Assembly: GCA_027451665.1 (NCBI GenBank)
Contig: DAIDIW010000002.1
Coordinates: 1-46,250 of the forward strand
Reading direction: 5' to 3'
DNA length: 46,250 nucleotides
From: Candidatus Kaiserbacteria bacterium
Lineage (GTDB): Bacteria > Patescibacteriota > Minisyncoccia > Phycocordibacterales > Phycocordibacteraceae
Shown: positions 5,917-8,104 of the stretch, one piece after another
Layout: every line of letters begins with the position of its first letter
Position numbering within the stretch: the stretch's first letter is position 1
Position numbers and translations under genes: made by a program
Notes under the pieces: model-generated
What the model saw: only the letters and a program-made list of their open reading frames with translations
The model's database searches: none
Told to the model about the DNA's origin: nothing

Positions 5917-7071
5917 CTAGCGGATCGTGGCGGCGAATGCCTCGGCGGTCGCGTGTTCGAGCCGCGTATGGAGCGCGTCGACCTCGGTGCTCGTGAGCGT
6001 GCGGTCGAGCGCGCGATAGGTGATACGGTAGGCGTAGCTCATCTTGTTCGGTCCGAACTTCGCGTCGTTCTCGTAGCGGTCGAGGAGCGCTACGTCCTCG
6101 ACAAGGTCGCCGCCGATTTCGCGCACGAGGTCGAAATAATCGTTCGGCACGAAGGTCTTCGGCACGACGAAGGAAATGTCACGCAAGGAGGGCGGATACT
6201 TCGAGACCTCGTGGTAGGTCTCTCCGAGCACGAGCTGCCGCTTCACACGCGCGTCGTCGCTCCAGAGGAGCCGGATATCCGGCAGCGCCATGCTCGCAAT
6301 CGCAAGCCGCTCGAGACCAAAGCCGAACGCCCAGCCGTGATAGCCCGTCACGCCCATTTTCTTCAGCACGCTCGTTTTTGGCATGCCGCCGCCCAATAGC
6401 TCGAGCCACTCGCCTTTGGCGGGTCCTTCTGCCGCCGTGCCCTTCACGTTCAACTCGAGCTCGAGCGAAGGATCGGTGTAGGGGAAGGTGTCCGGATTGA
6501 AACGGAATCCAACGGACTCGCCGAAGACGCTCCTCGCGATCTGCGCGAGCGTCCCCTTCAGGTCCTCGACGGTCACCGCTTCGGTATCCGGCGCGATATA
6601 CCAGCCGCCCAACTGATGGAAGACATTCATATGGCGGCTGTCGATCTCGTCCTTGCGGTATACCTTGCCGTAGCAGATCGCGCCCATGGATTCTCCTTTC
6701 GCAAGACGCTCCTTCACGCGCGGATCGGTGAGGTAGTAGTACCAGAAAACAGTGTCATGGGTTCGTAGGATGTTGTTTGCATCCACGTAGTAGGTATCGC
6801 TCTGCGAGCGCGCCGGATGGTCTGGCGGAAAGTCGAAGAGGTCGAACGATATGTCTGCCGGTACGATCTCAGGAATTTCGATGACGTCGAATCCGGCAAG
6901 CGTCGGCACCCGCTTTACCCGCTCGACGAGCTCGTGGAGCGGGCTGCCGGGCGTACGGGAGAGATCGGGCATCGCGAGGTAGCGACGTTCGCGGATGGCC
7001 TCGAAATCGCTACGCGCCTCGAGCTCCTTCCGAAGGTGCATTTCTTCGCTGCGGTCAATCTGTATCTCCAT
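5917..7071 (-). CDS. pheS: Single-chain phenylalanyl-tRNA synthetase: alpha catalytic domain fused to the FDX-ACB anticodon-binding domain
   Basis: HPARSQSDTYY, LRTHDT, GKVYRKDEIDSRHMNVFHQL, FPYTDPSLE, GWAFGFGLERLA, then SKYPPSLRDISF...SYAYRITYRALDRTLTSTEV. Start moved to ATG 7071 (384 aa). Confidence 0.92.
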   Translation of the reverse strand: MEIQIDRSEEMHLRKELEARSDFEAIRERRYLAMPDLSRTPGSPLHELVERVKRVPTLAGFDVIEIPEIVPADISFDLFDFPPDHPARSQSDTYYVDANNILRTHDTVFWYYYLTDPRVKERLAKGESMGAICYGKVYRKDEIDSRHMNVFHQLGGWYIAPDTEAVTVEDLKGTLAQIARSVFGESVGFRFNPDTFPYTDPSLELELNVKGTAAEGPAKGEWLELLGGGMPKTSVLKKMGVTGYHGWAFGFGLERLAIASMALPDIRLLWSDDARVKRQLVLGETYHEVSKYPPSLRDISFVVPKTFVPNDYFDLVREIGGDLVEDVALLDRYENDAKFGPNKMSYAYRITYRALDRTLTSTEVDALHTRLEHATAEAFAATIR

Positions 7072-7079
7072 GATGTCCG

Positions 7080-7112
7080 AGTGTAGCAGGCGCATCCGCG
7101 GTGCGCTACGAT
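7080..7112. promoter_or_regulatory. Back-to-back divergent promoters (pheS TGCTACACT on -, phosphatase TACGAT on +)
   Basis: -10 boxes at 7080-7085(-) and 7107-7112(+), 8 and 6 nt from their ATGs, in a 47-bp intergenic gap. Confidence 0.6.
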
Positions 7113-7118
7113 AGGCGC

Positions 7119-7751
7119 ATGGAGATTGTGAAGCACGTCTACCTCGTCCGGCACGGGGAGACGGATAGCAATGTCGACGGTATCTTTCGCGGACGTGACT
7201 CCGCACTTACCGAGCGCGGCAAGAAGCAGGCGCAGATCGTTGCGGAACGCATCAAGCATCTTGCTATCGAGGCGCTCGTATCGAGCACCTATCCGCGCGC
7301 GCTTGATACTGCAAGCGCGATCGCGGAAGCCACGGGCCTCATGGTGGAGCCGAGTGAGCTCTTCGTTGAGACGGGAGAAGCGAGCGTGCTCAGAGGAAAA
7401 CCGAAGGATCACCCGGAACGGATTGCAGCACTTGCTGCGATGGATGCGCAGAACCACCCTGACTACCGTCATTCCGACGAAGAGAATTTCCGAGAACTTT
7501 CCGAACGTGCGCAAGCGGCGCTCGACTTCCTGCGGAATCACGAGGCCGCATCATTGTGCGTCGTCACGCACGGCGCGTTCTTGAGAGTCCTCATGGGCTC
7601 AGTGCTCTTTAGGGATGACTTCTTGAGAAGCCAATTCGTGCAGATGCTCCGTCATTTTAAGACCGAGAACACGGGAGTGAGTCATATCTCTCATACGAAC
7701 GACAGGGGGTGGCAGCTCATAACGCTTAACGACGACGCGCATCTTCTTTAG
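7119..7751 (+). CDS. Histidine phosphatase family (phosphoglycerate mutase-like) protein
   Basis: YLVRHGET, SSTYPRALDTA, VTHGAFLR, NTGVS. Start moved to ATG 7119. Confidence 0.9.
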   Translation: MEIVKHVYLVRHGETDSNVDGIFRGRDSALTERGKKQAQIVAERIKHLAIEALVSSTYPRALDTASAIAEATGLMVEPSELFVETGEASVLRGKPKDHPERIAALAAMDAQNHPDYRHSDEENFRELSERAQAALDFLRNHEAASLCVVTHGAFLRVLMGSVLFRDDFLRSQFVQMLRHFKTENTGVSHISHTNDRGWQLITLNDDAHLL

Positions 7752-7753
7752 TC

Positions 7754-8104
7754 ATGGACTACGTCACGCTCTCACATCTGAAGATCATCGGGATCCACGG
7801 CCATCATGATCATGAACGCCACGTGGAGCAGGAGTTCGAGGTCTCTTTGCGGGTCGGATGCGATGTAGGCGCGGCAGGGAAGTCGGATTCGCTCCCGGAT
7901 ACGATCGATTTTGACTTCCTGCGCGGCTGCGTCGAGGAGGTATTCGCGCGGAAGAGCTATTATCTTGTCGAAGCATTGGCCGAGGACGTCGCCAAGGCGA
8001 TTTTTATGGACGACCGCGCGAAGGAAATCACCGTCTCTGTACAGAAAAAGGCCGTCTGGCCGGATGCCGTCCCCGGCATCGAGATTACCCGGAAACGCGC
8101 GTAA
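7754..8104 (+). CDS. folB: Dihydroneopterin aldolase family protein
   Basis: IGIHG..E...EQEFEVSL, DSLPDTIDF, LVEALAE, VSVQK; starts 2 nt after the phosphatase stop. Confidence 0.88.
   Translation: MDYVTLSHLKIIGIHGHHDHERHVEQEFEVSLRVGCDVGAAGKSDSLPDTIDFDFLRGCVEEVFARKSYYLVEALAEDVAKAIFMDDRAKEITVSVQKKAVWPDAVPGIEITRKRA

Follow-up and report, generated by a model that had tools for sequence, protein, structure and literature searches.

Dihydroneopterin aldolase (DHNA) mutated from Tyr to Phe is a well-known case of one substitution changing the class of a reaction, and the DHNA active site is formed between subunits. The Tyr, Glu, and Lys residues of the enzyme have been described as "strictly conserved among DHNA sequences" (PMC9937910). 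This Tyr packs against the pterin ring and forms a hydrogen bond to the 2'-OH; it is dispensable for forming the reaction intermediate but needed to protonate that intermediate to 6-hydroxymethyl-7,8-dihydropterin (HP), while the equivalent of Glu73 has a described role in anchoring the pterin (PMC4176595). As cited in PMC4176595, Wang et al. 2006 found that a "point mutation" turns DHNA into a cofactor-independent oxygenase; the products of the oxygenase reaction are 7,8-dihydroxanthopterin, glycolaldehyde, and formate (PMC11328599). The aldolase-to-oxygenase biochemistry of the Y53F and Y54F enzymes, on which the original prediction for the locus described here drew, is real, as judged from that citation and from the solved Y. 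pestis DHNA Tyr53Phe structure (7su4). The FolB of M. tuberculosis (Rv3607c; 1nbu, 1z9w) is a trifunctional aldolase/epimerase/oxygenase with appreciable native cofactor-free oxygenase activity that yields 7,8-dihydroxanthopterin. Tyr54 and Lys99 are needed for the aldolase and epimerase activities that make this protein (MtFolB) essential (PMC11328599).

In the literature searched, neither a natural Phe (or Trp) at the catalytic Tyr position of DHNA nor any publication on FolB or dihydroneopterin in the CPR/Patescibacteria came to light. What is new here is a defined, selectively maintained natural clade with Phe at position 53, accompanied by Tyr-bearing sister orthologues at the same locus. 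The Phe and Tyr orthologues provide a natural experiment on the evolutionary use of the switch. Additionally, this FolB clade of the ultra-small Patescibacteria has, as a whole, lost its link to folate synthesis, which suggests an activity related to pterins or purines in organisms reliant on host metabolites.

The FolB of the window and its active site

The window, the whole stretch of 46,250 nucleotides analyzed here, belongs to a Candidatus Kaiserbacteria genome of the Paceibacteria type from soil (720 kb in 9 contigs, ~96.8% complete), which carries one copy of FolB. The features that bear on the analysis are as follows:

7101..7751, + strand, histidine-phosphatase superfamily (His_Phos_1) gene (PF00300, 124 bits; no NCBIfam equivalog reached)
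7754..8104, + strand, folB, orphan gene of the FolB family (dihydroneopterin aldolase T-fold), ATG start, 116 aa
7814..7816, + strand, Glu21 (GAA), catalytic/substrate-tail Glu, equivalent to E. coli Glu21, invariant in alignments A1 and A2
7910..7912, + strand, Phe53 (TTT), aligned on the catalytic Tyr53 (E. coli) or Tyr54 (S. aureus, M. tuberculosis)
7970..7972, + strand, Glu73 (GAA), pterin-anchoring Glu, equivalent to E. coli Glu73, invariant in A1 and A2
8045..8047, + strand, Lys98 (AAA), catalytic Lys, equivalent to E. coli Lys98, invariant in A1 and A2

The folB product passes the Pfam model PF02152 (82 bits, cut-off 31.8) and the NCBIfam FolB domain model TIGR00526 (65 bits, cut-off 45.05), and scores 66.2 bits against the folB equivalog TIGR00525, below its cut-off of 72.15. 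An AlphaFold2 model of the monomer, built with 39 homologues, reached a mean pLDDT of 95.4, and the Foldseek comparison of this model with solved DHNAs (including 5f3m, 1sql, 1nbu, 1dhn, 7su7, and 2o90) gave TM scores of 0.90–0.95 and rmsd values of 1.2–1.8 Å. As modeled, the protein belongs to the FolB structural family, with its T-fold intact. Annotation as EC 4.1.2.25 is not warranted, because the catalytic Tyr and the pathway context are missing and the equivalog score falls below the cut-off.

The original prediction placed a TTT codon at 7910–7912, within the motif DTIDF, where FolB has its catalytic Tyr, and this proved exact to the base in the sequence and in three ungapped alignments. 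The stretch around Phe53 reads PDTIDFDFL; its DTIDF aligns without gaps with DTYDY of M. tuberculosis FolB (1nbu), its TIDF aligns without gaps with CLSY of E. coli FolB, and the Pfam and NCBIfam FolB models, also ungapped, likewise place Phe53 on the catalytic Tyr. The two Glu residues (21 and 73) and Lys98, predicted to be kept, align with their counterparts in E. coli and M. tuberculosis. The protein therefore has the catalytic Glu21/22, Glu73/74, and Lys98/100 of a DHNA and has Phe in place of Tyr53/54, i.e., the scaffold of the engineered oxygenases, with the Lys and both Glu residues present and the Tyr hydroxyl gone.

Two ways of accounting for the missing Tyr were considered and rejected. 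No other Tyr occupies the catalytic place, with the alignments being ungapped around residues 44–56, and none of the nearby Tyr residues is a credible substitute: Tyr70 is also common in relatives with Tyr53 and is not clade-specific, Tyr69 is uncorrelated with Phe53, and Tyr18 is lost, not gained, in the core Phe clade. A sequencing error at 7911 does not fit a Phe that is conserved across the clade and encoded by both Phe codons. A reading of the His-rich motif HGHHDHERH as a new metal site is not supported, as M. tuberculosis FolB has HGVYDHER at this position and His17, His18, and His20 vary within the clade.

Comparison with the closest described enzymes shows where the resemblance holds. 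The window FolB is like the engineered Tyr53Phe (E. coli) and Tyr54Phe (S. aureus) enzymes in having Phe at the same aligned site with Glu21, Glu73, and Lys98 kept, and it has the same fold as the Y. pestis Tyr53Phe structure (TM 0.94). Unlike the engineered enzymes, with which it is 25–30% identical, it is natural and conserved in a clade; it has His17-His18 in place of Val-Tyr, a Phe at residue 55, and a VWPDAVPG loop instead of GAV; and the other pathway genes are missing from its genome. Among solved structures, M. tuberculosis FolB is closest in sequence (46.7 bits) and has the HG..DHER motif in common with the window FolB, but it keeps Tyr54, works within a complete folate pathway, and owes its essentiality to its aldolase and epimerase activities. 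Canonical FolB (TIGR00525) and FolX (dihydroneopterin-triphosphate epimerase), which serve folate and monapterin synthesis, belong to the same Pfam family and T-fold, and the FolX structures 1b9l and 4aey were among those matched; unlike both, the window FolB lies below the equivalog cut-off and is without the catalytic Tyr. By analogy, the closest functional counterparts would be the engineered Y53F/Y54F oxygenases and the oxygenase-prone MtFolB.

Distribution, origins, and selection of Phe53

A word-indexed search recovered ~28 close homologues with 47–84% identity, and those that are named are Paceibacterota/Patescibacteria proteins annotated as "dihydroneopterin aldolase". The next tier consists of betaproteobacterial FolB-domain proteins (34–38% identity). 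When 1.84 billion cluster representatives were searched with a profile, 13,512 members of the FolB family were returned, the best 150 of which were inspected. Of the 209 collected relatives (L numbers denote their loci and P numbers their proteins), 170 have Tyr at site 53, 24 have Phe, 14 have Trp, and one has Val. The Trp forms are P0102, P0112, P0127, P0128, P0136, P0137, P0141, P0157, P0174, P0175, P0183, P0185, P0202, and P0207.

All 24 Phe sequences fall within a single clade of 27 leaves in the FolB tree, in which three Tyr sequences are nested. On this tree Phe requires three changes and Trp at least two (eight in the maximum-likelihood tree). The Phe codon is TTT in the window and in L037, and TTC in L038, L043, L045, and L009, all from independent assemblies. 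With GyrB as the proxy for the species tree, L043 (Phe) is sister to L042 (Tyr) with support of 99/96, and L037 (Phe) groups with L039 (Tyr) with support of 81/88; therefore, Phe arose at least twice.

The substitution did not have the same accompaniment in each lineage. In the lineage of L043 and P0025, Phe53 is the only change. In the core Phe clade, to which the window belongs, Tyr18, the second canonical active-site Tyr, has become His, Phe, Asn, or Ser, residue 55 is Phe, and residues 102–105 read WPDA in place of WxNG, such that NG has become DA after the conserved Trp102, whereas relatives with Tyr53 retain both Tyr18 and NG. Judged from these aligned residues, the changes in the core clade are a coordinated remodeling and not a lone substitution. 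The folB reading frame is intact in every relative, and comparison with the nearest relative gives a dN/dS of 0.11 (dS 0.96), with a range of ~0.1–0.2; the gene is therefore under purifying selection. The corresponding values are 0.13 for the adjoining phosphatase gene and 0.045 for gyrB.

An orphan gene outside folate synthesis

No match to FolE (GTP cyclohydrolase I), FolE2, or PTPS/QueD was found in the 96.8%-complete source genome. The absence of folK and folP beside folB, noted in the original prediction, extends to the entire genome, in which neither FolK (HPPK) nor FolP (Pterin_bind) was found. A hidden FolK was rejected: the sole HPPK match has 10.9 bits and lies antisense to rplK/nusG. 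Using E. coli K-12 proteins as tblastn queries for enzymes that use folate, GlyA, FolD, Fmt, ThyA, and DHFR were found (DHFR was confirmed with 168 bits) and FolC was not. The presence of folate-using enzymes combined with the absence of genes for pterin synthesis means that the source organism uses folate and cannot make the pterin moiety. As FolE is absent there is no dihydroneopterin triphosphate, and as FolK and FolP are absent nothing consumes the product of an aldolase. Thus FolB has neither FolE upstream nor FolK and FolP downstream in its own genome, and the claim that it is not a folate-pathway aldolase is well supported.

Outside the window, the genes folA (DHFR), thyA, and glyA are clustered at ~19.4–24.6 kb of contig C5 (L033 5465–10606), along with cytidylyltransferase-like, dCMP-deaminase-domain, and HIT genes. 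Together they resemble a compact module for thymidylate and one-carbon metabolism in a genome devoid of pterin synthesis.

The orphan state is not particular to this genome. Of 201 genomes from the same order, just 13 have FolB, and representative genomes of the same genus and of the same family are without it; the other 12 FolB proteins of the order all have Tyr, and FolK and FolP occur together in only 2 of the 13 genomes. Further, both FolP and FolE are absent from all 16 related genomes that carry a FolB of this clade, whether Tyr or Phe. The related species-representative genomes are MAGs from soil, groundwater, and sediment and are labeled Candidatus Paceibacterota, Kaiserbacteria, Adlerbacteria, or Parcubacteria. 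Since Tyr and Phe genomes alike have neither FolE nor FolP, the orphan state is ancestral to the clade and the change from Tyr to Phe came later within it. The orphan state thus precedes the substitution, and Phe did not cause the repurposing. This order of events weakens the idea of a pterin-degrading oxygenase, which formed part of the original prediction, as does the interleaving of Tyr and Phe forms, which would also fit a function that is independent of the hydroxyl.

Genomic neighborhood

The histidine-phosphatase gene, probably translated from the ATG at 7119, ends 2 bp before the folB ATG and is a likely operon partner of folB. A phosphatase is also found upstream of folB in L045/L023 (86% identical), L037 (47%), and L042 (45%; this locus has the Tyr form); in L043 (34%) it follows folB. 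The canonical FolB substrate arises by dephosphorylation of dihydroneopterin triphosphate, and for this reason a phosphatase partner fits a pterin substrate, though the link is circumstantial. As a universal partner of folB the phosphatase was rejected, as it is adjacent in only ~5 of 12 genomes; this adjacency, the great breadth of the superfamily, and the two further paralogues in the source genome all count against a partner role. A single-sequence homologue search for the FolB partner protein returned the query itself as its sole match.

In all close relatives folB is flanked by the Phe-tRNA synthetase gene(s) on one side and gyrB on the other, and several have its start touching or overlapping the stop of pheT. 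Such an arrangement looks like inherited housekeeping synteny that says little about function. The Phe-tRNA synthetase (PheRS) of the window (5917–7206, − strand) is a single chain of ~384 aa from its likely ATG, with a class-II core and an FDX-ACB domain, an architecture also seen in mitochondrial PheRS. No pheT was found in the 96.8%-complete source genome. Sister genomes have canonical pheS and pheT at the same locus on the opposite strand (L003 3381–5998, L006 3456–6001). The two arrangements are intermixed among close relatives, with the single chain in the window, L045, L009, L037, and L046 and pheS with pheT in L038–L044.

Possible functions of the window FolB

We tentatively read the window FolB as a pterin side-chain-cleaving enzyme that works outside folate synthesis and may be unable to protonate its reaction intermediate, a plausible reading that we hold with reserve. 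The enzyme would still bind a 7,8-dihydropterin with a polyhydroxy side chain, a substrate that may be scavenged from the host or the environment, and the adjoining histidine phosphatase could plausibly dephosphorylate dihydroneopterin phosphates before they reach FolB. Lys98 would drive retro-aldol cleavage between C1' and C2' with the release of glycolaldehyde, and without the Tyr hydroxyl the resulting enol/carbanion would not be protonated efficiently to 6-hydroxymethyl-7,8-dihydropterin. With O2, the intermediate would be converted to 7,8-dihydroxanthopterin and formate, the EC 1.13.11.81 chemistry of the Y53F/Y54F enzymes; without O2, it would recombine with glycolaldehyde, such that the outcome would be mainly epimerization. 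Many Patescibacteria are anaerobes, to which an O2-dependent reaction would be irrelevant. Further points count against side-chain cleavage. The source of dihydroneopterin is not encoded and the substrate is hypothetical; the occurrence of Tyr and Phe at the same locus in sister species could as easily reflect indifference to the hydroxyl; and folB is dispensable at short range (13 of 201 genomes, and a genome of the same genus without it).

The interleaving of Tyr and Phe forms is also what near-neutral drift would produce, if an orphan function needed only aromatic stacking at position 53 and Tyr, Phe, and Trp could interchange with no oxygenase role. In that case the job of the protein may be ligand binding or the use of a different substrate, e.g., a guanine-like base, and solved DHNAs do bind guanine or 9-methylguanine (titles of 1sql, 3v9o, and 5far). 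The 14 other relatives with Trp at the site, representing at least two origins, and the equally orphan state of the Tyr-bearing clade members are consistent with such drift. Nevertheless, we consider this main rival a somewhat unlikely, if real, possibility: Glu21, Glu73, and Lys98 are invariant across the clade and form a catalytic set, not merely a binding one, the core Phe clade changed at four positions in a coordinated manner and not by a lone toggle, and dN/dS is ~0.1–0.2. An organism that requires folate, as indicated by GlyA, FolD, Fmt, ThyA, and DHFR, might instead use FolB as a working, perhaps slower, aldolase/epimerase that salvages scavenged dihydroneopterin or dihydromonapterin to hydroxymethyl-dihydropterin, with the product handed to the host or used by unrecognized, non-homologous replacements of FolK and FolP. 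All other catalytic residues are intact, and a genome that is 96.8% complete is not 100% complete. Salvage of this type appears improbable, as FolK and FolP are missing here and FolP is missing in 16 relatives, the weak HPPK match is antisense to rplK, FolC was not found by tblastn, and the Tyr is required both for HP formation (PMC4176595) and for the aldolase/epimerase activity on which the essentiality of MtFolB depends (PMC11328599). Lastly, the patchy distribution, the same-genus genome without folB, and the want of pathway partners might suggest a functionless, decaying remnant or an assembly or sequencing artefact. This is scarcely credible for a gene with an intact frame in every relative, a dN/dS of 0.11–0.2, a confident AlphaFold2 model, two Phe codons in independent assemblies, and conserved synteny.

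Returning to side-chain cleavage, its strongest form would make the Phe53 clade a naturally evolved, cofactor-independent dihydroneopterin oxygenase in which the switch was used at least twice, paired with a co-transcribed phosphatase in a two-gene module that strips and oxidizes host-derived dihydroneopterin phosphates. We regard this fuller proposal as unlikely. Should it be true, the module would allow folate-auxotrophic, episymbiotic Paceibacteria to make, independently of any folate pathway, dihydroxanthopterin, formate, and glycolaldehyde, and the one-residue switch from aldolase to oxygenase, so far known only from mutagenesis, would be one that nature has employed.

An AlkB-like domain beside other CPR FolB proteins

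Several CPR FolB proteins from other FolB subclades (L017, L019, and L020) are fused to a domain of ~200 aa, and 12 of the 16 database homologues of this domain are also FolB fusions. The domain has an invariant HxD/E...H motif and Arg and a weak match to 2OG-FeII_Oxy_2, and its AlphaFold2 model (pLDDT 91) resembles 2OG/Fe(II) dioxygenases of the AlkB and prolyl-hydroxylase families. An AlkB-like 2OG oxygenase partner was rejected as the cause of the orphan clade, being absent from the window genome and from all genomes of the Phe clade and the near Tyr forms. As far as our searches show, the pairing of FolB with a dioxygenase is undescribed. The domain also occurs as a separate gene that lies directly upstream of folB and overlaps its start (L034 5438–6004, L035 522–1115), which is the case for both of the Trp53 variants whose contexts were read, and in L052 its gene adjoins folB. 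In G054, the FolB-dioxygenase fusion adjoins folP and folK.
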